Below, one piece after another: positions 1-54,383 of a stretch of DNA of 64,000 nucleotides. Position numbers and translations under genes: made by a program. This stretch comes from Yuukianura sp. NJ FZ-2021 (Eukaryota). Under the pieces are notes generated by a model that was not told where the DNA came from, searched no databases, and was given only the letters and a program-made list of their open reading frames with translations. The stretch spans positions 8,494,001-8,558,000 of the forward strand of contig CM102287.1 in assembly GCA_046563655.1 (NCBI GenBank), given 5' to 3'. Each line of letters begins with the position of its first letter. The stretch's first letter is position 1.

Positions 1-2
1 AG

Positions 3-1352
3 GAATCTAGCGACGAGTCGGATCCGGATGACATTGACTTGGAGCTTCCCGCTCTTGTCAAATCATCGCTTGACAACCCTTGGTGTTTGACAGATTCGGT
101 GAAGGATAACGACAAGGTCAACATGTACTACACTGGCTACAAGAAGTTTTGGGACGACGTCAACGAACGGAAGGAACGTGAACGTAGAAGACTTGAGAGA
201 GAGGAAGCTCGTCAATTAGCGGAAAAGAAGGCTAAGCAGGAACTTCGAGAAAAACGCAAGGCCGAGCGTCTAGCGGAAGTTGCAAACGAGGACTTAGCGG
301 AAGAAGTTGAAATTATTGCTACCGTAGCTTCTCCCAAGAAGAAGAAAAAGAACAAAGGCAAGAAGAAACCAGTAGTTCCAGCAACTCCGTTGGTGTCTGC
401 CAATGATGTTCCCCAAGAAATGAGTGTAGACGACTTGGACGAATTGATGACCTTGGCCAACCAAAAGTTACAACAAAAGTTAACTAAGGAAGTGAAACGC
501 CTCAATAACAAGAAGCAGCCGACAACTCCGATACAAACCGAAACGGAATCCGAAAGAAGCCGAAGACTTCGAAACCAAGATGGCGACATTGACGAAATCC
601 GTGACCTTGTCGTTGACGAACAAGAAGTTAACTTTGAAGGAAACAATCCAGACGAAGCTCCTCAGAATGTTACTGTCACTCCACAAAATGCAAATACTGA
701 AGAAACTAGCAAGGCCAAGCCTCCGCCAGCACAAAAGATCATCGATCCTACACACTTTTTAGAAATCAAGAAATCAACCAAGTTTGATATGCGAGATGCC
801 CATGCTGATATGGACTCCGACAATGAAATCCTACCAGAAGATGAAGACGACGAAGAACGAGAGCATCTGAAGATGATTGCTGAAGCATTTGAAGATGAAG
901 ATTTGTTGAATGATTTTGAACGGCGAAAAGGCGAAGAAATTGAAGCTGGAAAACCGAAGGACATCAACTTAACACTGCCAGGATGGGGTGAATGGGGTGG
1001 CAAGGATCGTAAACCATCAAAATCGAAACAAAAACGATTTACCAAGAAAGCACCTAAGCCACGCCCCCGTAAAGATGCTGCTCTTCCGCATGTCATTTTA
1101 AATGAAAATGCTAATGCAAAAATCCGGGAGCATCAGGTCAAAAGTCTTCCATTTCCGTTTACACGGGTAGCCGATTATGAGAAAATGGTGAGAGCTCCAA
1201 TTGGTCGTACTTGGATGCCAGAAAAAGCAATGAAGGACCTCATTGCTCCTAAAGTGGTTACTCGTCTGGGACAAGCGATTGCACCAATCAGCGATTCTGT
1301 TCTGTTCAAACCGCGGAATCAGAAGTCCAAGACGCTGAAACTCATCAAGTAG
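3..1352 (+). CDS. UTP14: U3 snoRNA-associated protein 14 (SSU processome), last coding exon; 5' part lies outside the window
   Basis: Frame is open from nt 3 to TAG at 1350-1352. Contains UTP14 C-terminal signatures IAEAFEDEDLLNDFERRK, TLPGWGEWGG, LPHVILNE, SLPFPFT and PIGRTW. AATAAA at ~1477. Confidence 0.92.
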   Translation, partial: ESSDESDPDDIDLELPALVKSSLDNPWCLTDSVKDNDKVNMYYTGYKKFWDDVNERKERERRRLEREEARQLAEKKAKQELREKRKAERLAEVANEDLAEEVEIIATVASPKKKKKNKGKKKPVVPATPLVSANDVPQEMSVDDLDELMTLANQKLQQKLTKEVKRLNNKKQPTTPIQTETESERSRRLRNQDGDIDEIRDLVVDEQEVNFEGNNPDEAPQNVTVTPQNANTEETSKAKPPPAQKIIDPTHFLEIKKSTKFDMRDAHADMDSDNEILPEDEDDEEREHLKMIAEAFEDEDLLNDFERRKGEEIEAGKPKDINLTLPGWGEWGGKDRKPSKSKQKRFTKKAPKPRPRKDAALPHVILNENANAKIREHQVKSLPFPFTRVADYEKMVRAPIGRTWMPEKAMKDLIAPKVVTRLGQAIAPISDSVLFKPRNQKSKTLKLIK

Positions 1353-9080: not shown

Positions 9081-10085
9081 TTAAAATAAAGTTCACAATT
9101 TCTAAGCTTTCCAAAATTCAAAGAAGTTCCTTAAACTCAATTTCCCTGTTTGAAGCTTTTATAAGATCAAAAATTTTCTTGTTTTCAATTTTGGAAATTT
9201 CCGTCTCTGTGCCCCTTCCCAGTAAAAACTAAATTAAATTTGATTGCCTCCCGTTCAACTTAACCAATAAAATAATTTGGCTCTCATCCAACTACCCTCT
9301 TCTGAGTAAAGTTGTAAAACCTAGTAAAAGTTATAGCGATATTGTTAAAGTAAGGACAAGACATTATGGAATTGTGCCATTTAAGAAGGGACATTTGAGT
9401 GTCAACTTTAATTTTGTGGCTACTACTAACTTATAGCACTTTTCAAAATTTATGTTCTTTCAAAATACGAACTGGTGAAGCGGAATCTGGGAGGTTTTCC
9501 AGTTTCCAATTCGGGGACTTTCCCTAAAGGAATTCTGGGCGGAGTTTAAGTGGTCCAGTAGGAATGGTTTAGTGAAAGTCCTTCAACCATACAGAAATGC
9601 TTTCACTGCGTGTAGTCAATGCGCAGAGAAAGTTCTGGAAGGGAGTGCAGAGTGGGTAATGAAGCATTGCTGGAAGGGGATGCTGGAAATGGTTTGACTT
9701 TCACCCTGGGAGGGATGGAGGGTCAAAGTGGCTGGAGAGAAATGAGGCAAGGAAGATGAATTACGCTTTCCTTCCTGTCTGGGATGCTGCTGAGGAAAAA
9801 AGTTTTTGGAAACAAACTGAAAGATTTGTTTCCGAAAGTTGAGGAAAATGATTAAGTGTCTGTCAAAAATTTGACAATGTAACAAATCTCTCACTTCTTG
9901 ATTTTTTCAAAATTTTGATGAGTCAGTCAAATAGCCAAAGTTTTTAAACAAAGTGGTGAAAAGCGAAAGCAAGTGAAAGTCCTTTTGCAATTATGAAATT
10001 CTGACCCTAGCCAAAGAAAACAAAGACAAACTAGTAGGATTTGAAAAGAAAATAATTTTTAAAAAACTGTTTTTTAAAATAAAAT

Positions 10086-10132
10086 AACAGATTTTGAAAA
10101 GTGTTTTTTAATAACACTTTTCAAAATCTGTT
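10086..10132. repeat. Perfect 20-bp inverted repeat with a 7-nt loop
   Basis: aacagattttgaaaagtgtt (10086-10105), ttttaat, aacacttttcaaaatctgtt (10113-10132). The arms are exact reverse complements. Confidence 0.9.
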
Positions 10133-12517
10133 CGCCATGTATAACCGCTATACATTGAGTACGATTAGGAAGGAGTCGAAAACTAACTTCAACTTAAGAC
10201 TTCTACTGCTTAAAGAATTTCAATTTCAAACAATTGTAAAATGACACAAAACAAGAATGCGTACTAAATTCACAAAATTTAGCAAACATTTCTAAAATTT
10301 CATAAAATTCTACTAACAATACAAAAATAAAAACTATTACTAAGCACATTTTAGAATTGAGCTTGCGAAGAACTGGATAAGATTTTAATCTGTATTTGCA
10401 GATAAACCTTCAAATTGCATAGCCTCAATTTTTATCAAAAAGGTTTCTACTTATTTTAAGCTAATCCCGCAAATTAAATTTTATAAATAAATTTTAGCAT
10501 TTTTCAACCATTTTCCTGTCCCATCTTTTCTAATTGCAATTTTTGGTAAATTTGGAGCCACTCTTCACTCCCAAAGAAGCAACTAAACTTGAAAACCAAG
10601 AGTTTTCCTTGTGGTTTTGTGTTGGTTTCCCTTTTTAAATGACAATTATGTTATTCGAAAGTGAGGAGGAAACTGGCAAAATTGTGAACGTCAAACTTTA
10701 ACAAAATAACAAAAAATACGTAATCGTAGGTTGAGGTTAGTTGTGTTCCTACATACGTTTAAGTGCTTCTTACTTGGTGTTAAAATATTTCCCTTTTATT
10801 AATCGCCAGTTCATTTCAATTTCATTGGTTCAAGTTTTTAAAAGTCAATTTTCCGAATCATTTCTTTCAATAGAATTCACATTCTGCGTCCATATCCTGG
10901 AACAAGTACCAAGTGAAATCAAGGTAATTTAATAAATAACATACAAGAATACATTGAAAATAATATTTATTATTATTTTTTTAAGTTGAATTCAGATGAT
11001 ATGTTTCAAGAAATTTTTTGAAAAAAAAAAACAGTTTTCTTTTGCTAAATTTTGACGTCGTCTGAAATTTTCTTTATTTTGCCTTTAGAAGGTACTGTAT
11101 TTAAAATTAAGGTCGGAAAAAAATAATTTTGTAGGACACTTTCCTGCAGCATTGGAAATTGCAGATTTTCAAAAATATTTCTAAAATTTTCAAAAAAAAA
11201 ATGAAGTAAAGTAACTATGCGATGATCATCTAAACGAATAACTTCATCATTCTTAAATTAGTTTAACTTTTTCCAGAGATAAAATTAGATTAGTCAGGTT
11301 AGTTAACAAGTTATGTTAAATGTGTTAACAATCTCTAGTTATGGTTATATTCTATAAATTGCCTACATGTTGATTACATTACATGATTAATTATTTTATT
11401 ATATTTATAGTTTATTTTACATTTTGCTTTAGAATAGGTTTCAGTAGAGTACTTTATTAAGTTAGGTTATACGTTAGCGCGTGGCTCTGCATTAACTTAA
11501 TTTTTAGTTTCCTCGGCCTGTCTAAAGAGCAGAATTAGGCCAATGTTAGCTCTTTCTTTGTTGACCCTTGTAAATTAAAGTTAAGTAAAGCCTGGTTAGA
11601 TTAATTAGTGAAGATGATGGAAGAGTGTGGTGTTGTTGGTGAGTCTTCCGCTAGGTTAGTGTGGGTGTTGGAGCCTGTTTGGGAAGATGTTGGAGTGTAT
11701 ACTTGGGTGTTATTGTTTGGGAAGCTGTGCGTCTGCCTCAGTTTGTGAATAGAAGGAAAAGGAAATGTTCCGTAGTGGCTCTGTCTAATATCGATTTCCC
11801 CTCTCTCCCTTCGCACTTCCAATATTGATTTCCACACTTAACTTTTACTCTAAACTTATTCACGCCTTCACATCCACTTCTAATTGCTAACTCCCTTCCA
11901 GGAAAACTTATCTTGGACTGGAGATAACACTTTAGCAAACAACTACAGTTAAGGGTCAACTGCTTCCAGAAACTAACAAGGTGTAGTCATCTTCAACAGT
12001 CATCCGAAAGCCATATCTCATAGGACCTCCGGTTCCTGGAACTTAAAAATTCAAAATTTCGAAAAAGTGGATTTAAACTAATTTGGATTTCAACTTTCAC
12101 TTGGTCACTTTCTCCCGATTAGCTTCAGGTAAGCGCCACTCACAAAATTTGTTTCTCAGGCTTGCATAAATTTTTTAATAGAAGTTCTGTTTTAATTTTC
12201 GTCAGACGCTTCAATTTTTCTTGGATTGATTTAATTTTTTTACTTAACCTAACCTAGCTAAAGTTAGAGTTTAACTTGCAAATTTTAATTACAATTAAAT
12301 GTAATTTATATAGGCCGTATGACAAGATCAACTAAACTTTTAGCAGGATGAAGACACGTTTGTGTGTAAATTTTTTGTTTGGATTTTAGCCTAGCCTTGG
12401 ACGAATGACTTGACTATGGGAGTGATTCAGTGGGATTTCTTGCCTTATTCCCTTTTTCGTCTTTACTAAGAAGTTACTCAGGGCCCACCCACATCTGCCC
12501 CCACTTTTTACTCCGCC

Positions 12518-12615
12518 AGGTCACTCCTGAGGTCATTCGACCAACTGGGCAGGTCAAGTACTCCGTCTTTTAGTAAATGGTCGGTAGACAGAGGTCAGTG
12601 ACCTGGTTCAGGTCA
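12518..12615. promoter_or_regulatory. Cluster of nuclear-receptor half-sites including a perfect IR1 (EcR/USP-type element)
   Basis: AGGTCA at 12518, 12530, 12551, 12592 and 12610. AGGTCAgTGACCT at 12592-12604. Confidence 0.6.
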
Positions 12616-13073
12616 AGGAGCTACAAAAACTGGCGGTTCAAGCATAGCATAGCACGCCCAGAAGGATTAAGGAGCCCGGACGCTCGTTTTGTTGTTTTAA
12701 AACTGAAAGGCATCTCTTCATATGAACAAGATCGCGGCACATGTTTTTACAGCTTCATAAGATCCATGTCGTAGAGGAGCCAAAAATTTCAAGAGGTTCA
12801 AAAACTTTAAAAGAAATGTTGTTTAAAAAATTAGGTGGTTCGTTCAACTCTTGTGTTCATTGAAAAAGTAAAGTGCATAGGATAAGTTTGATAGGGCGGA
12901 AGTCGGTTTGAGCCTTAAGTTGACTGAGTTTTGCGAAATCCTTGCCACATCCGTTGCTCTTTTTGAACGTCCTGGAAAATGTTTTTCTATTATGAAAAAC
13001 TTTTTGACTTATTTTTTCAAAGTTGTTGAAACTCATGATGATCAAATATGCTTAGTGTTTGCTAATTTTTGGA

Positions 13074-43924: not shown

Positions 43925-44620
43925 TCATTGGAATTGCGATTGAGATTCCGATCCAATTGGAGGAGGTTGGCCGCTCATGAAATTCGGATCTTGGTTTCGC
44001 ATCATTTCAATTTGTTCCTCCTGCAAAAGTTAGTCGGGAATTAGAGCTTCGAGCTTTCGATGTACTTGATCTTCTGGATTAATGAAATTCAAAGGTTGCA
44101 AAAACTTACTGGTGTGAGTGGTCGGAATTGTTCAGATGTAAAGCGGGTAAAGAGGATTCCGACACCTTCGATCATAGCCAACAGTACTCCGCCAATTAAA
44201 GCACTGCCGACCATTGCCCCAGGACCACTTCTAGCTGCCAGTATTCCGCCAGTTGCGGCTCCACTCATGATGGCATTCCAAGGATCTTCCTTTCCTCTGA
44301 GTTTGATCAGTGAACAGTCAATTGTAGAAAACAGACCACCCCACACTGCAAAGTTTCCACCGATAATTGGTGCTCTTGTTTTGATTGCTGTTAAACTTCC
44401 ATTGAAACGATGTGAAATCCCAGCAGGAGAGTTACGGAAACCTTTGATTGCTTGAAAAATTGAGCCACCGATGGCACCCATGGTAAATGCTCCTCCGCAG
44501 TCATCGACAATTCGCCAAGGACTAAAGAAAACAATACAGATATATAGAGGCTAATCGTTTATCATTTGGACGAACAAGTAAGTCACGAACTTACCAAGGT
44601 TCTCTTGCATATTCCTCCAT
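43925..44620 (-). CDS. TIMM17: Mitochondrial import inner membrane translocase subunit Tim17
   Basis: Exons 44620-44595, 44521-44110, 44020-43925. [28 protein letters not shown]...[41 protein letters not shown]. Confidence 0.97.
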
Positions 44621-45174
44621 TTCTTAATTCCTTACGTTTATCTGAAAAACCAGTCAGTTCTAAACCTGCAATGTCATAAAAAACTCACAAATTAAAGGAC
44701 CGACCAAATTAAGTTCACGGATTACGGATCAGATACTACTAAATTGATGACTTACAAAAACAACACCGTTGACACCCAATCCCTGTTAATAAGGGTACAA
44801 TTTAAGTGATTTCGTAAATTACTTTCCAAATTACTTCGAGTGTCGAGAAGAGTATAATATCAAATCTAAAAGAAATTAATTGATGTTGACGAAGCTAAGG
44901 TGAGAAGGCAAAAGATCGGAAAAACGAAAAAGTGAATTGGAGATGATGAAATTTGAAAAATTAAAACTATGTGTGTGTGAATTTAATTCAAATATACACG
45001 TGGTAGTTCTATCTCCCGCCACTATATTTTGAGACGAGTGAATTAATACGAGGCAAAAAGGTTCCCTGTAATGGATGGTTCATTTAAAAAAAGGCGCGAA
45101 ATATTTGAATTTGAGTTGTCTACCTTCATTTTGTTTTTCTTTTTGCAAAAAAAAAAAAAATAAACAAAAGTGAA

Positions 45175-47170
45175 TCAGCGAGTGTGAGGACGAGGAGAGG
45201 CTGTTTGTTTATCTTCTTTGTTCTGATTAATTAATCAATTAACTGAGATGGACGACGCCATAATAATCTTTCTTGGTGCAGTGAACACACAAACCAATAC
45301 CTAGATCTAGGGAAACGTTTCTAAAAGTCGCAAAACGTTCGTAAGTACCCCGAATATTGACAAAAATTTTAGCAATTTATTTTTTAACTTTTTGTAACAA
45401 ACACAACGTTCTTTGCTTGATTAAAATTAACGCTAATTTGATATTTGCCTTAAGTTTTTACATTCAGCCAGCCGTATTTTAGGAATCCAAATCGAAGGAC
45501 GAAATCTTTCAATTTCCTTAACGTAAGTTTAGTACTCTCAAGGTCCACCGTTATTTTAGGACATTTTCTTTTTAATTTTTTTGCTATTTCACAACTACTC
45601 TTGCTTATATCAACATAAAATTAAAATATTGGAAATGATCAACATCATAATCGTAATCGTAACGTTTTCTGCCCCTAATCCAAATTATAATTAGAGCAGA
45701 ACTTGTTTAGTACTTTTCAGATTCGAATGTGTAGTGGAAATTTAAGTGCAATTAAATTAGTTTAATAGACATTTACAAATTAATCGCCATACATTTACGT
45801 AACTAATTAATGAATGTTACTTTTCAGAATTAACAAAGGACTCTGCTGAACCTTATCCTCTATAATAATTCTCACAGTTCTTTTGTTTAAATTACTTGTT
45901 GAGGCGGAATGGATTCACAGTGACAACAAATGTAAGAATAATTATATCAGTTTTTGTCTTATGCTTTTATATTACTTAACTTATAAATCTATTCTAGGTC
46001 AATTACTGAAGTCAAGTGCAGCCAAGAGGTCAACTTGGTCGAGTTAATTGAAGTGAAAACAGTTTAACATGGAAAGGAAGAAAAGGCGTCGGCAGGGTGT
46101 GTAAATCGAATGTTTAACTTATCAGCGTCGAAGTGAAAATTTCAGCGGTGACGCGGTGGTGACGACCACGGCAGCGGTGATTTCCATTCTTTACTTCTGT
46201 AAGACTTGCACTACTCTTCTCATGTAATTGACTTTGATTAGACTTAATGATAGCTTCTAATTAATTAACTTTCAGTGTTTTGGTGACCGTGGCAGTGACA
46301 CCGTTTGCGGTTCCATTGGATGTGGGTTTTGAAGATCTTCTATTAGTAAAGTAGGCTTTGACGAAGAAGTTGGCAAATAATATGAAGTAGGTGGCGTACA
46401 TGCCGAGGGCAAGGTACATGGCGTCATAGCTCCTGTCGAAACAGTTCCCACGGTTTGCTGCAAGTACAAATCAACGTCGTCATCAAAAAATAAATACCAT
46501 AGGTAAGCGAAAACCTAAATGGGAAGTTTTCCTGAAACTTGGGAGTATTAACATTTTGATTGCTAATTGACATGCATACGTTAATTTTAATTTTGTTTGT
46601 ATAGGAAGAAGTTGAGGGAAAATTGAAAAAAAAAATTATTCGTCGCAATCTCGGAATTCCATCAACCGGGATGGCTTTTTCAAAATCGCAAGTTCGCCAG
46701 AGGGAATTCGCGTTAAATATTGGAACTACTTGACGCAGCATGCCCCATGTTCCGAAAACTTACATTTCATGTACAGGGAGTAGAGGTTGATGTAGACTCC
46801 GACTACCATTTGACTCAACTGAAGTGTCGTTATCGTCATTGGGAGATACTTCGGCATCTTCAGCTGCAGCGTCTGAAATTCACATCGATTTTTGGTAAGT
46901 GTTAAACATCCTACATGCTTTTAAACACGGAATTCAATTTAAATTTTGAAGCAGAAGTGGGTCAAGGAGTTTGTGCGTTAAATGTTTTTGAGTGGCGACA
47001 TGCAATGGTATAGCAGAGTTAAAAAGTGGCAGCCGAAAAATCGATGTCTTCTTACATATGTGCTGGTTTGTAAAATTTCAATTTAATTTGTTGATTTCAA
47101 TTTAATTTATTTATATTTATAGTTTTCTCCAATACACATGTGAATTGAGAAGCTATAAATATGTAATAAG
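45175..47170 (+). ncRNA. Predicted multi-exon lncRNA, divergent from TIM17 and antisense to the ELOVL 3' end (ends approximate)
   Basis: Ordered + strand introns: 45341-45467, 45523-45827, 45932-45997, 46199-46275, 46503-46604, 46895-46951/46954, and possibly 47066-47122. The first six donors are GTAAG(T/A/C), and the acceptors have T-rich tracts with (C/T)TAA(T/C)-like branch points. No long ORF after splicing. Confidence 0.6.
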
Positions 47171-48278
47171 TTTCCTGATTTTGTAATCATGAAATCGATT
47201 TTTCTGCTAAACTTATTTTGAGCAAAGCAGAAAAAGAGTATAAATGAGAAAATGAAAATACGAGCGTCGTGATGTGCTTACCTTGGCGGCATAGTAAGAG
47301 TACATGAGACCGTGTACAAAGAAGTTCATGCACATGAACCATCGGAGACTGGGGTCATATTCCTCATAGGTCACCCAACAGTAAACCAGCACTGTAACAT
47401 GGTGATACCTGGAGATAGGTCAATAGGCCAAGGTTAAAACCTGACAAGATAATGCATACTTTGACCTCTATTGTAATGTTAGGTCACACTTACCAATGGA
47501 GGAAGATAAGTGGTTGCTTCCGGAGTACCACAAAGGCAGTGTCACCCAATTCCAGGAGCTTCGACAAGGTCATGTACCACCCCCAGAAGGCAGTTGCCGA
47601 GTTATGATCTTTCCTGGAACACAAAACGTAAGCAATTATACTAATGAAATTCTCCATTTCATTTCACAATTTTCAGTTTTCAAGACAAACAGTTAAATTT
47701 TTAACTTAAAATTAGCAAGTTTCCAGAGAGCAAGTGCAGGAGGGAGAAAAAAAAACTAAAGTTTTGGAAGTTTTTCTGAATTGTTTTGAAAACAGGAAAC
47801 TTTAATTTTATTTTTATTTTTTTTTGAAATACCTTTCACAGACTGAAGTGTGGAAGCCTGCGTATCTGAGGACGTGCAGAATTTCGGGGAAGGTCCTTAT
47901 GAATCCAAAGAGAGAGAACGCTGCCAGGAAAATGTTCCAGAACAGAAGTCTCTTCCGCAGTCCAAACGGTTTCCGATTCTTCATCCATGCTTGTCCAGAA
48001 AATATCAGAAGGACGTCTATGAAAAAAACACAGAAGGTGACAACTCAATTACAAAAAACTGCAAACTTTAGTGAACTTTTGACTCAAAAATTTTGATTTG
48101 ATGTGCTTTTTTTCTTACATAGGAAGGAAGCGTACAAGCTCCAGTCCCAGTGACCTCCCATCCAGCGACGACAAGAGTTGAGGTCAACATGTTCCCAGTG
48201 AAAGGGATCCAAGTACGTGTCAACCAGTGGAACTTCCACAAACGTTTTGTTCACTCCTGGACTGGCTCCCGGCAGCAT
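46261..48278 (-). CDS. ELOVL6: Very-long-chain fatty acid elongase, ELOVL3/6 (baldspot-like) subfamily
   Basis: Exons 48278-48119, 48016-47833, 47613-47494, 47408-47282, 46872-46764, 46457-46261. Motifs [60 protein letters not shown] and MYATYFILFANFFVKAY. Ends KTLKVN*. Confidence 0.93.
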
Positions 48279-50599
48279 CCCAACCACTTTCAAAGGCTTC
48301 CTGATTCAACTTTGTCAAGACGCTGAGCAGTCTCTCTCTGCGGCTGTCGTCGGTTGCTTGCTGCTGGGTGTTGCCCTTTGGCCAATGACAAGATGGCTGC
48401 GTGCTTACTGACACGAACTTCTGGAAGAGACACAGAAAATGGTTGAATGAGACACACGGCCAGAATACCTGTTTGGCTCAGCGTCCTGATCTGATCTGAT
48501 GGAAGCGAGGCTAACCAGCTAAACCTAGCCGCAGCTCCTCACCTCATCATTATCATCCTATCCCAAGTAAAGTCCAACTTATGAGCAGCAGCAGTGGGTG
48601 CTCCAACTATAGTTTGCATGCAAATTGTGCCAATTCTAACCAAAGGAAACTAGGATCATTTGGGTTTCAAGGTATGCCGCATGGTTCGTCATACTTATCC
48701 AATGGCATTACTCTCCCTTTCATGCTTACTGGATCACTAATTCATTTCATTTTGCACAACCTACAGAAAAAAGTTGCATGCTGAGGAGGATGCTATAAAG
48801 GCTCATTCCAAATGCAAAATTGAAAAAACGATGACACCTTAGCAGCTCTGACGAGATGGTAAGCTCCAATACCTTCCGTCTTTACTCTATGATTATCCCA
48901 ATTATAAAAGTTCACCAAAAATTAAGCGGTAACATAGAAAAAAAAGTTGGCAAAAAGTAACTTTTCGGGATTTACGCAAAAGCATAACTTTTTCAAGCAA
49001 AACCGCCAAGATTTTTGTCAAATGCTGCGTGCTTTCCGAGTTTCTTTGTCCAGTCTGCGCAGTTGACACTGGAAACTGCTTGAATCATTCTAAATTTTTC
49101 AGTAATCGGAAAATTAAGAGTCATTCAATCAAGTTTCCAGTTAAAAACGACTGCTGATACATGACACAAACTGGGTAAGCAAGGCAATATGCTTTGAAGG
49201 CGTTATTGTGACATAACATTTTTTCATTTGTTGAAAATGATCCCGAAGAACCGGTTTATTTGGCTCGTTCGCACGTACGCTTTATGAGTAAAAAGTGTTT
49301 ACACATAAAAGCTGCTTTTAAGTTGGCTAGAGATGCTGGCGCTGGAGCGAGAATGATGACAGGCAGATGCCAAATGTCATGCAGCCACTTGAAACTGCCT
49401 CGTGGCAAAAGCAATTGGAGAGTTTAAAATTGAATGATCTGCTGTCGGCTTAAAGAGTTTTAGATTACTACACTTCTAGTCCAGAGCCAGACCAAGGTCA
49501 TGGAATCAAGTGACCTTTGCTTTGTCCATATCAAAAGTGAAAACGCTGTAACTGACCTCATTCAGGATGTAGACTTTGTTCTAGAGCTGAAAGTGCACTT
49601 TTCAACACCCTAATCTAAGTGTTACTCCAAGCAAAATGAAGACTGACAGCTAGTTTCTGTCTTTTTTGAGACTTTTCGAAAGTGATAGTGAAAAATTTTC
49701 ACTGAAAATGGGGTGAAAATGTTGAAAAAGGCACAAACGCTAACTGATAGGAAACAGGAAAGGAATGAACTAAAAGTTTAAAGAGGTACAATGTAATGGT
49801 AATAATGCGGTTCAATGTCTTAACAATTAGGGTGAATTTCAATTATATTTGAGTGTTGGTAGGAAGGTCAGTTAGAACCTTGGTTATTCCGAAACAGGAG
49901 TGACACGAGCTAAAATGCTTGGCGAACAACAATCAACACCCTGCTGACCCTACATGTAGTTAGTATTGTTACATGTTACTTTTGATTTTCAAATTTTTAG
50001 CACGTTAGCATCAGATCACGTCTTTTAAAGTTACAATTTTGAATGAGTTAAAACTAAAAGGGAATGGACGAGACGAGGCTATCTGCTTTGAAAACTATAA
50101 GAATCGCAAACATTTTTGAAAAGAAGGGCAAATCTTTGTGAATCATTTTCGAATGGAGAAGTATCGCAAAAATTGTGTTGACGTTATCTACTTTTACCAA
50201 TTTGAAATTATTTTTTGTAGACAAAATGTTATAAAAATTGGAGTTTGTTAAATTATAATTGCAGTTTACTAGCTTATCTGCAAGTTCAAAGAACAACCGT
50301 CTGTCAACTAAACACTTTACTGCACTTGTCAAATCCGTTCGGAACTGACTCATCCCTGTAAAACTTTAGTAAATCACACTTCGATTAGTCATGATCATTC
50401 AATTGACATTTAACTGTAGCCGGCAAATGACAAATTACAACTGACATAATCTGTGTGACAAGAATGACACAAAGCTCTACTTCAGCCATTCCAGTGTGGT
50501 CGTACGACCACTTTTATGTTGTGGCGTGACGTGACGACAAGCTTTTCCAAGTATTAATCAAGCATGAGGGTTCAAAGACCAAAAAACGTTTTTACTTAC

Positions 50600-50817
50600 G
50601 TTTGACCTCGGAGAAATGGTCGAAGTGGAGTCAACGCTGTAGCGATTGAGTTACAGAGCCAAGAAGCGTTGAGCGAAGTTAGTAATAGGGTGATTAATTA
50701 TCAAAATTAATTAACACTTGACTCTGGAACTCTAAATTGAACTGATTGACCACGATGACTACACCACGACCACACCAACCAAACTGGAGGAGGAACTGTG
50801 GCAAATGAGAACAGACT
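50600..50817 (-). promoter_or_regulatory. Probable non-coding first exon and TSS of the elongase
   Basis: Minus-strand initiator ATCAGTC at 50814-50820 and donor AAC|GTAAGT at 50599. Matching acceptor ttttctgtgtctcttccag at ~48421, upstream of the ATG. Confidence 0.5.
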
Positions 50818-51630: not shown

Positions 51631-52888
51631 AATACAATGGAATTCATAGGTACTTGAGGATTGAGGATGCGTTACAGAAATGCGGTGAAAAAAGAGCAAT
51701 GTTTTATGCATTTTCCATTTCTAGAAATTCAACGTTCGATTTCAGCAGCATACTAGTATGAGACTTATTCAAAGCAGACTTTCAATGAAAACGACTAGTG
51801 AGACAACTAAACAATATTAGTGTATAGTAAATAATAATACATTAGTGACGAGACGACGATGGCTAACATAACGGTAGTGTTTTTCACTACTGTCTGAGGG
51901 ACTTTGATATCCATTGACACTGAAAAAGACGCTTTCCTTCAAAATCAATTCCAAATGTCAAATGTTTAACTGGCTTTTACCGCAACGTTAATTTAAAGTT
52001 GTAGCTTACTAAGAAGTTCTTTAAAGGGCAAAAGCTGATGTTGGAGCTGTAAGCAAGTCGTCGAACTTGATAAGTTTTACTCAATTTGACAAGTTTACTT
52101 GACAAGTATATACACGCTAACCAAGTCCAATATTGGTGTACTGGATTGGCTACTTTCATTGACAAGGAATTGTCTTTTTCTGGCTCATGCATGCCTCTCC
52201 CATTCCAGCCGAAGCTACTAAATAATTTTTGTGTTTTTTTTTATTAGTAAAGTAACAATTGAGCTGGTGCTAGTTAATTATTTTAGACTCTTCAATTATT
52301 GGTGAAAATGACTAAAACAATACTGCGAAGGCGCAACAATACGTTTCGTATCGTTTTTGGGCTAAGCGTATATCGAATTTATGTTTCCGACTTGCGTCAT
52401 AATTTTTAATAATGTTATAAGAATTTCCGTGAATCTTTCGTAACGGTTTTGTTTCAAGGTATTAAGACAATGAAAATATGATAGTAAACTTGCCAGTAAA
52501 ATTCCCGTGTGACAAATTGTCACTGACAATGTAATAAAAAGGAAAACTTTAAAGAACGAGCAGAATATGGGCTTTAAATTGGGAAAAATAATTTGTGTAG
52601 GGTTCATGGGAATCGCCAGAATGAGGCAATTACTGGTTGCAAAATTACATCGGTCAAGGTTTAGATCATGTTTAAGTAACATTTCAGTTTTAAGTGCGTC
52701 GTACTTATTACGTTTGTAAAACGTTCGATTAATAGGATTCATTCATGAAATTGTTGAATGCCATAATAATTCCCAATTGGCATTGGACATGAATGAAAAT
52801 CGATGTGAAATTAACAAAAATGAATGAATAATGGCCATAAGTAGAGCGTGGGAGGAATAAAAACCGGCGGGGTGAATGACCCCTACCA

Positions 52889-52932
52889 TTTTGAATTTCC
52901 CGCTCTAGAGAGTTTTCGCGGGATATTCAAAA
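52889..52932. promoter_or_regulatory. Inverted pair of E2F/CHR-like composite elements at the probable DENND4 promoter
   Basis: ttttgaatttcccgc (52889-52903) and gcgggatattcaaaa (52918-52932), a 14/15 inverted match. Spliced 5' UTR signals follow, e.g. AAG|GTAAGT at ~53106. Confidence 0.5.
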
Positions 52933-54383
52933 ACGTAAACAAACTAACCTTTCTCTTTTTTTCACCTTTTGCCTTTTTCCTTATTTAGGTTGCAAGCAAA
53001 TTAGATTGCAGACTTTGTTTTATTTGTGCAAAAATTAACAAAGAAGACTTCCGGCGCTGGAAACGAGTTAGAGGGCGATTACTGAATTAATTTTGCGGTC
53101 AAAAAGGTAAGTTTACGACATAGCGGTATACCCCTCGTCCTCTGTAGCTTTACGAGAGATGAATACATAACAATAATTAAATCGATAGAATAACCGTTAA
53201 CAGACTTCTCATTCTTTGCCTTCACAGCTCACTGGAGTTTGGAACAACATCACGTCTCATTGTCGTTCTGCTCCTGGTCATAAAATTTTTGCTGCTGACT
53301 TATCAAATTTCACGAAGACGAATAATATTGCTCGAAACTAATTCACCCGGCACTCAATTCCCATTCCCACACTTACCAGAAACTAAATTGCAAATCGAAA
53401 TTGGCGGAAGCACTCCGGAAAAGTAATACTGTAGCTCGAGCGGTGATTTGTTCCAAACTTCTCGGAAATAGGTGAGGTGATCCTGCGATTGCTAATCGTG
53501 ATATAAAGTCATTGCTCATCTTCATCATATCGATTTCATTCATTGATTATTGTGCTTTTGTTGTAGAATCTCATTTTTGGAATTCCATTTCTAACTTCGT
53601 CTTTGATCGTGTTTAGTCTGCGAGTCTCAAAGCTGTGGGTGCTTTTGGCAGTGTGACGTAACGTCGTGTGGGAGGTAACAAGGAAGATCCAAGGTAAGTT
53701 ACCGTACACAGACAGACACACCATGTCTCAAAGTCATATGCTCGTCCTTCTTTTATTGTTTTTTTTTTCTTTGCAATTTTTAGAAGTGTTTGGAACCTGT
53801 TTTCGACACTTAATATTGTGACGAAGATAGGGAAATTATCTACAAATCGAGCATCAGTCTACTGCAACCTACAGCTGAACCTTGGACGGATTTGTGTTTC
53901 GCGATAGTGATTAAGTTCATTAATTCTCTTGTTTTGTGAATTGTGATAACTTGGAACTGGTGCACACTTCAACGATTTGGTCAATGTTCGGCGTCTAGTT
54001 GATTGTTTTCATCTCAAAGAACTTTGAAGGACTTTGATCATCTGATCTGTCGGACGAGGACGATACATCACATATCCTAAAGCGGAAATACAAACTCATA
54101 AAGGTTAGTTAGAAGTTTTTAAGAAGGAAAATTGGATAATAAGTTGTCTACGGTTCATGTGTTGGTAAATCTAATGTGGTTGGGGAATACTTACTTTTCA
54201 GTGACTATGTCTCTTGAGAAGGACGGGGTATTACGTAAATCATAGCCAATAGACTGAAACAGCGGTCAGACTAAACCAAAATCTTCTTACTTCGTGGTTT
54301 TCTTTTACGAATTACACTACTAATCTTCATCGTCTACCTTCGCCGTATTTATTTAACTCAAACATCCAGTTACCCAGTTGAAC

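Follow-up and report, generated by a model that had tools for sequence, protein, structure and literature searches.

Does the strand opposite TIM17 and ELOVL carry a transcript of its own? In a 64-kb stretch of contig CM102287.1 of Yuukianura sp. NJ FZ-2021 (the window hereafter; eukaryotic, ~39% GC and with short introns), the elongase gene ELOVL and the mitochondrial import gene TIM17 follow each other in tandem on the minus strand, and 1.64 kb separate the ELOVL stop from the TIM17 ATG. A first-pass annotation of the letters placed on the plus strand of this locus a spliced antisense RNA linking the TIM17 promoter to the 3' end of the elongase gene. The analysis presented here suggests that spliced plus-strand RNA, in some form, is probably made at the TIM17-ELOVL locus. 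With a little less assurance, we also predict that this RNA belongs to a stand-alone, non-coding unit of several exons, which diverges from the TIM17 promoter region and converges on ELOVL. If real, the predicted unit would be both an ordinary divergent-promoter long non-coding RNA (lncRNA) and a tail-to-tail cis-natural antisense transcript.

Splice signals on the plus strand

Six consecutive plus-strand introns had been proposed in the first-pass annotation, and all six do have GTAAG at their start and AG at their end, in the places given. Their lengths (57-305 nt) fall within the 44-409 nt of the 41 introns of the window from which splice matrices were derived (donor 3+8 nt, acceptor 20+3 nt). 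The training introns were obtained by reading-frame logic applied to the gaps that separate long open frames in known genes, filtered and hand-corrected, and the hand-checked introns of ELOVL and TIM17 were included among them. They carry GTAAG donors in 18 of 41 cases, their interiors have 30% GC, and they score 9.7-24.8 bits by resubstitution (median 18.4), with a leave-one-out median of ~14.7 bits. The proposed unit has the following parts, where the two scores of each intron are those of its donor and its acceptor:

45175-45340, plus strand: proposed exon 1 (GC 40%); a pair inside it, 45184-45281, offers an alternative of 13.9 bits
45341-45467, plus strand: proposed intron 1, 127 nt, GTAAGT...TTCAG, 6.4 and 8.4 bits; CTAAT 32 nt upstream of its 3' end
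45468-45522, plus strand: proposed exon 2
45523-45827, plus strand: proposed intron 2, 305 nt, GTAAGT...TTTCAG, 8.2 and 6.6 bits; CTAAT 22 nt upstream of its 3' end
45828-45931, plus strand: proposed exon 3
45932-45997, plus strand: proposed intron 3, 66 nt, GTAAGA...TTCTAG, 6.8 and 5.3 bits; interior 58% T
45998-46198, plus strand: proposed exon 4, GC 45% against 19-32% in the adjoining proposed introns
46199-46275, plus strand: proposed intron 4, the weakest of the six, 77 nt, GTAAGA...TTTCAG, 3.1 and 4.4 bits
46276-46502, plus strand: proposed exon 5, which lies antisense to the final coding exon of ELOVL, with an AATAAA at 46489
46503-46604, plus strand: proposed intron 5, the strongest of the six, 102 nt, GTAAGC...TGTATAG, 8.9 and 10.4 bits; CTAAT 39 nt upstream of its 3' end
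46605-46894, plus strand: proposed exon 6, covering the penultimate ELOVL coding exon
46895 (donor, 8.1 bits), plus strand: proposed intron 6, with its acceptor at 46951 (57 nt), 46954, 46957 or 47122

In this order the six candidates total 14.8, 14.8, 12.1, 7.5, 19.3 and 12.5 bits, the last reaching 18.4 bits with the acceptor at 47122; with an alternative acceptor at 45720, intron 2 totals 15.7 bits. Five of the six (12.1-19.3 bits) lie within the range of the training introns, mostly in its lower third. Beyond intron 6, an intron-like pair of 57 nt on the plus strand (47066-47122) scores 15.3 bits and may correspond to what had been noted as a possible seventh intron.

We then scored whole chains, taking the best non-overlapping pairs of 45-320 nt in a scoring window of 1.79 kb and recording how many pairs reached 12 bits and by how much, in sum, the pairs exceeded 8 bits. 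The plus strand of 45171-46960 yielded seven pairs and a summed excess of 52.8, as compared with three and 20.3 for its reverse complement. Dinucleotide shuffles reached the plus-strand values in 35 (count) and 13 (sum) of 10,000 cases, and with an earlier matrix none of 400 shuffles did so in each of three schemes, one global and two local. As a control with real sequence we used 624 sliding windows on both strands, 128 of them antisense and 128 sense to genes. None of the 128 windows on the antisense strands of known genes reached either candidate value (their maxima were 5 and 39.9), and the candidate value lay above 74% of the 128 sense-strand windows. The candidate sum was attained by 44 of the 624 windows, all of them on the sense strands of known genes with the exception of a block at 9.8-12.8 kb. 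Training without the introns of ELOVL and TIM17 did not change the antisense result (still 0 of 128). We also divided the region. The half at 45171-46280, which is free of ELOVL coding sequence and introns, was the stronger one and was matched by none of 279 antisense windows, while the half at 46276-47130 was matched by one of 294 in count and by none in sum; 46276-46960 taken alone was weaker (23 of 304 in count and one of 304 in sum). GTAAG itself occurs six times in 1.8 kb here, against ~0.9-1.3 per kb in the window. The plus-strand signals at 45171-46960 exceed chance moderately to clearly, and, since their chain is as strong as those on the sense strands of real genes, we infer that a spliced non-coding RNA is likely to be transcribed from this strand.

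Other ways of building or counting chains were abandoned. Counts at a threshold of 8 bits did not discriminate between strands and were replaced by the 12-bit count and the summed excess. A length-only exon-chain program over-extended the exons, and an unrestrained iterative one was discarded after producing 219 false introns.

Base composition and branch-like motifs provide support that is partly independent of the splice scores. When the ELOVL coding sequence is left aside, GC is 40.3% in the proposed exons and 27.0% in the intron interiors, a contrast reached by 26 of 1,100 circular shifts of the exon/intron mask. CTAA, the branch-like motif of this genome, is found at a distance of 8-50 nt upstream of the acceptor among true introns in 19 of 41 cases, as compared with a fraction of 0.24 in AT-rich tiles, and it is present at such a branch-like position in four of the six candidates. 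In fact, four of the seven plus-strand CTAA fall in the six branch windows, which make up 252 of 1,786 nt (14%).

The placement of poly(A) hexamers on the plus strand also fits an elongating unit. Within 45175-46960, ATTAAA is found at 45420, 45620 and 45751, always inside proposed introns 1 and 2, and the sole AATAAA (46489) sits 14 nt before the strongest donor. As neither hexamer occurs between 45752 and 46488, a plus-strand transcript that reaches 45.8 kb should cross the last ELOVL coding exon, whether intron 4 is real or not.

Position relative to TIM17 and ELOVL, and coding capacity

The two minus-strand genes and the interval upstream of TIM17 were delimited as follows:

46261-48278, minus strand: coding sequence of ELOVL (ELO family), with exons 48278-48119, 48043-47833, 47613-47494, 47408-47282, 46872-46764 and 46457-46261
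44089-44620, minus strand: coding part of TIM17 (PF02466, E 2.7e-34), with exon 1 at 44620-44595 (ATG at 44620), an intron at 44594-44522 and exon 2 from 44521
44621-45174: putative divergent promoter and probable TIM17 intron in the 5' untranslated region (UTR), between the TIM17 ATG and the proposed plus-strand start

ELOVL shows PF01151 matches in five exon open reading frames (ORFs), and its six coding exons join into an open frame of 924 nt that ends in TAA at 46263-46261; exons 1 and 2 of TIM17, once joined, likewise give an open frame from the ATG. Against this map, the geometry described in the first-pass annotation proved correct: the proposed start, 45175, is 555 nt upstream of the ATG of TIM17 and on the opposite strand, two exons overlap ELOVL coding exons, two introns lie inside ELOVL introns, and the ELOVL stop falls in intron 4. 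Specifically, proposed exon 5 overlaps the last ELOVL exon (46457-46261) by 182 nt, and proposed exon 6 contains the penultimate one (46872-46764) with its 109 nt. Under this exon model, and provided that the RNA is transcribed, the exonic overlap characteristic of a cis-natural antisense pair would amount to 291 nt of ELOVL coding sequence. Proposed introns 5 and 6 are located within the ELOVL introns 46763-46458 and 47281-46873, respectively, and the ELOVL stop adjoins a CTAAT at 46257-46261. On the minus strand, hexamers resembling poly(A) signals are present at 46195, 45973/45971, 45766, 45576 and 45381, and 45998-46198 (proposed exon 4 of the plus strand) is likely to be ELOVL 3' UTR on that strand.

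Upstream of the TIM17 ATG, the minus strand has two donors (44822, 44755) and two acceptors (44665, 44641) of 5-10 bits, which suggests that TIM17 has a non-coding first exon and a 5' UTR intron. Such an intron would probably place the TIM17 and plus-strand starts ~200-350 nt apart, the former being predicted at ~44.85-45.0 kb and the latter at ~45.05-45.2 kb. We infer from position alone that the plus-strand RNA starts at 45175 and that its bidirectional promoter is common with TIM17. The interval between the TIM17 ATG and the proposed plus-strand start holds some promoter-like motifs as candidates, namely CACGTG at 44997-45002, GGCGCGAAA at 45093-45101, which from its consensus we take to be E2F-like, and a run of 14 A at 45148-45161, just before the proposed start.

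That no protein gene lies on the plus strand here, as had been claimed, agrees with our results. The spliced model of 1,262 nt is interrupted by stops in each of its three frames, the longest stretch between stops (79 codons) being antisense to an ELOVL exon. None of the 17 plus-strand ORFs of at least 35 amino acids had a Pfam match below E 0.09, and a protein search with the 62-amino-acid ORF at 46717-46905 returned no homologue. A transposon origin of the unit was ruled out, as comparison of 44651-47200 with the whole window disclosed no repeat beyond a 30-nt A/T run. Rfam gave no match at E<=1 on either strand of 44000-48600. No small nucleolar RNA that would make the unit a host gene was found: a scan of intron 2 for such an RNA, which the first-pass annotation had suggested, produced no Rfam match at that threshold and a fold z-score of -1.25.

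Doubts about the exon model and rival explanations

While the splice-signal statistics speak for the spliced antisense unit put forward in the first-pass annotation, its exact exon model, which is doubtful at intron 4 and at the acceptor of intron 6, is probably wrong in part. Several observations weigh against the unit as drawn. Its six donors are every GTAAG on the plus strand of 45175-46960, so that the model appears to be motif-led, each GTAAG having been taken together with the next plausible AG, and a set of six GTAAG donors out of six is atypical when compared with the 18 of 41 (44%) in the training introns. The candidate totals are low relative to those introns, intron 4 (7.5 bits) being below all 41, and the acceptors first given for intron 6, 46951 and 46954, are poor (1.0 and 4.4 bits) in comparison with 47122 (10.3 bits). 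The unconstrained best chain keeps five of the six donors, joins two of these to different acceptors (45720 and 46021) and includes extra pairs. Moreover, the branch windows of true introns show a ~3-fold enrichment of CTTAC (4 of 41), the reverse complement of GTAAG, and the donors at 46503 and 46895, which read CTTAC on the minus strand, are ~47 nt upstream of the ELOVL acceptor at 46458 and ~24 nt upstream of the one at 46873, respectively; because of this enrichment and proximity, the two could be branch or pyrimidine elements of ELOVL. The local P of ~0.001-0.004 has to bear a look-elsewhere factor of ~70 independent windows, and the training introns, which come from reading-frame logic, contain some errors, while the sense windows used for comparison had served in training. 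The 3' end may lie near 46510, given the AATAAA at 46489, or beyond 47.1 kb, and neither AATAAA nor ATTAAA is found on the plus strand after the last proposed exon up to 48600 to define it. Among 76 TIM17 loci from metagenomes, the closest of which have ~77-78% coding DNA identity, nothing aligned upstream of TIM17 and none had ELOVL beside it, the closest having almost no upstream flank (<160 nt).

Much of this would be expected if the chain were a chance cluster of GTAAG and AG in AT-rich non-coding DNA, picked out by a search for GTAAG and including two elements that serve ELOVL splicing, with no plus-strand RNA being spliced at this place. The exhaustive use of GTAAG, the poor intron 4 and intron-6 acceptors and the CTTAC enrichment agree with such an explanation, and the local shuffle P (0.0013-0.0035), once multiplied by ~70 windows, is marginal by itself. 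Against it stand the real antisense-strand windows, none of which (0 of 128 and 0 of 279) reached the score, and the fact that the windows that did reach it belong to the sense strands of true genes, bar one unknown block. The GC alternation and the CTAA placement are further arguments, as is the greater strength of 45171-46280, where there is no ELOVL intron. On balance we consider chance unlikely. The signals could also belong to a longer plus-strand gene, such as the DENN-domain gene that lies downstream on the same strand, and represent its upstream, non-coding exons or an alternative promoter; the 5' region of that gene would then contain ELOVL, nested in antisense orientation. The absence of poly(A) hexamers up to 48600 is compatible with this, and plus-strand splice signals are mildly raised at 48.4-50.6 and 51.8-54.3 kb (4-5 pairs of at least 12 bits per window). 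However, six or seven non-coding exons with a total of ~1.2 kb would be unusual for a 5' UTR, between 47.0 and 48.4 kb the count falls to 1-3 pairs per window, and the gap to the DENN coding start (~7 kb) contrasts with the 44-409 nt of the training introns, all of which makes this explanation quite improbable.

A more specific proposal, raised in the first-pass annotation, is that the TIM17 promoter fires both ways and that the antisense RNA is a dedicated regulator, pairing with ELOVL messenger RNA (mRNA) and acting through small interfering RNAs of endogenous origin (endo-siRNAs), adenosine-to-inosine editing or interference. Duplexes of 182 and 109 bp would be diced or edited, and ELOVL would be coupled to the TIM17 promoter, the elongase being tuned, in cis and at the post-transcriptional level, to the activity of the import gene. 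In favour of this proposal there is the geometry only: the exons would be complementary to 182 and 109 nt of ELOVL coding sequence, and an overlap with the 3' UTR is likely. Precedents exist in Drosophila, where endo-siRNAs arise from convergent mRNAs (PMC11840564), and in yeast, where regulation is spread via antisense RNA from bidirectional promoters (PMC3063692). Conversely, the adjacency of TIM17 and ELOVL was seen in none of the 76 related loci, with the limit on flanks given above. To our knowledge, most cis-natural antisense pairs have no demonstrated regulatory effect, which we also count against a dedicated regulator, and we regard such a role as very improbable.

We believe that a stand-alone divergent non-coding unit is the most plausible explanation for these signals. 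Its RNA would start in the ~0.5-kb region upstream of TIM17, diverge from this gene and run convergently into the 3' end of its upstream tandem neighbour ELOVL, where it would overlap the 3' UTR, the last coding exon and probably the penultimate one. The dense 5' splice (U1) sites, together with poly(A) hexamers confined to introns, may let the divergent transcript elongate instead of ending early. An effect on ELOVL, if there is any, would most likely be exerted in cis, by transcriptional interference or through the 182- and 109-bp duplexes with its mRNA.

Other features of the window and relation to known systems

Pfam scans of 134 open frames provided the gene map of the window, in which the following genes surround the locus:

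1-1349, plus strand: Utp14
~1.5-5.2 kb, minus strand: GalNAc-transferase-like gene
~19.4-33.6 kb, plus strand: talin
35.9-36.3 kb, minus strand: Tctex-1
36.8-43.6 kb, plus strand: REV3 / DNA polymerase zeta
from ~54.36 kb (coding exons), plus strand: uDENN/DENN gene
63.5 kb, minus strand: Sir2 gene

The block at 9800-12800 of the plus strand has a chain as dense as those of real genes (up to eight pairs of at least 12 bits and a sum of up to 68). Its ORFs of at least 75 amino acids lack a Pfam match, and it may be another unrecognised spliced unit. From their splice chains, both 45171-46960 and 9.8-12.8 kb are probable unrecognised transcription units. At 48400-50600 and 51800-54300, also on the plus strand, there is no Pfam-supported gene, and the raised counts could correspond to 5' exons of the DENN gene or to other non-coding units. 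In the contigs of the closest TIM17 relatives, a C-terminal exon of REV3 was found tail-to-tail with TIM17 (L001, 881-1294; L059, 947-1911), which indicates that the REV3-TIM17 adjacency is conserved.

Divergent promoter-associated lncRNAs and upstream antisense RNAs elongate under the U1-poly(A)-signal rule. The predicted unit resembles the former in that its proposed start is within a few hundred nt of the 5' end of a coding gene, on the other strand, and in its many 5' splice motifs; as under the rule, poly(A) hexamers occur here only in introns or beside a donor. Upstream antisense RNAs are typically short and unstable and lack splicing, whereas the unit at this locus is predicted to be long and multi-exonic. 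In yeast, antisense RNA that starts at bidirectional promoters is reported to carry regulatory signals over to genes nearby (Xu et al. 2011, PMC3063692). The arrangement is similar, since the genes are in tandem and RNA from the promoter of the downstream gene would enter the upstream one at its 3' end, in antisense orientation. In contrast to the yeast antisense RNAs, which are unspliced, the predicted unit would contain six introns or more and belongs to an animal-type genome. In Drosophila, convergent (tail-to-tail) cis-natural antisense pairs yield endo-siRNAs (PMC11840564, PMC3439971). These pairs share with our locus the exonic overlap at 3' ends and the potential for duplexes, here of 182 and 109 bp with ELOVL mRNA. 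In the classical pairs, however, the 3' UTRs of two mRNAs overlap, while the partner predicted here is non-coding and reaches coding exons. A human lncRNA antisense to ELOVL2, ELOVL2-AS1, has been described (PMC10621244, PMC9013481). The predicted RNA would likewise be antisense to a gene of the ELOVL family; gene, organism and genomic arrangement differ, a relationship in sequence is not to be expected and the likeness is in name only.

With regard to method, chains scored with matrices taken from the same 64-kb window cleanly separated sense from antisense strands, which is the more useful outcome. As for the biology, thousands of divergent lncRNAs and cis-antisense pairs are known, most without a shown function, and for this reason the general view of such transcripts would not change. 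If true, the TIM17-ELOVL unit would be one more divergent-promoter lncRNA and cis-antisense pair in an animal genome, of use for its annotation and a possible local regulator of ELOVL.

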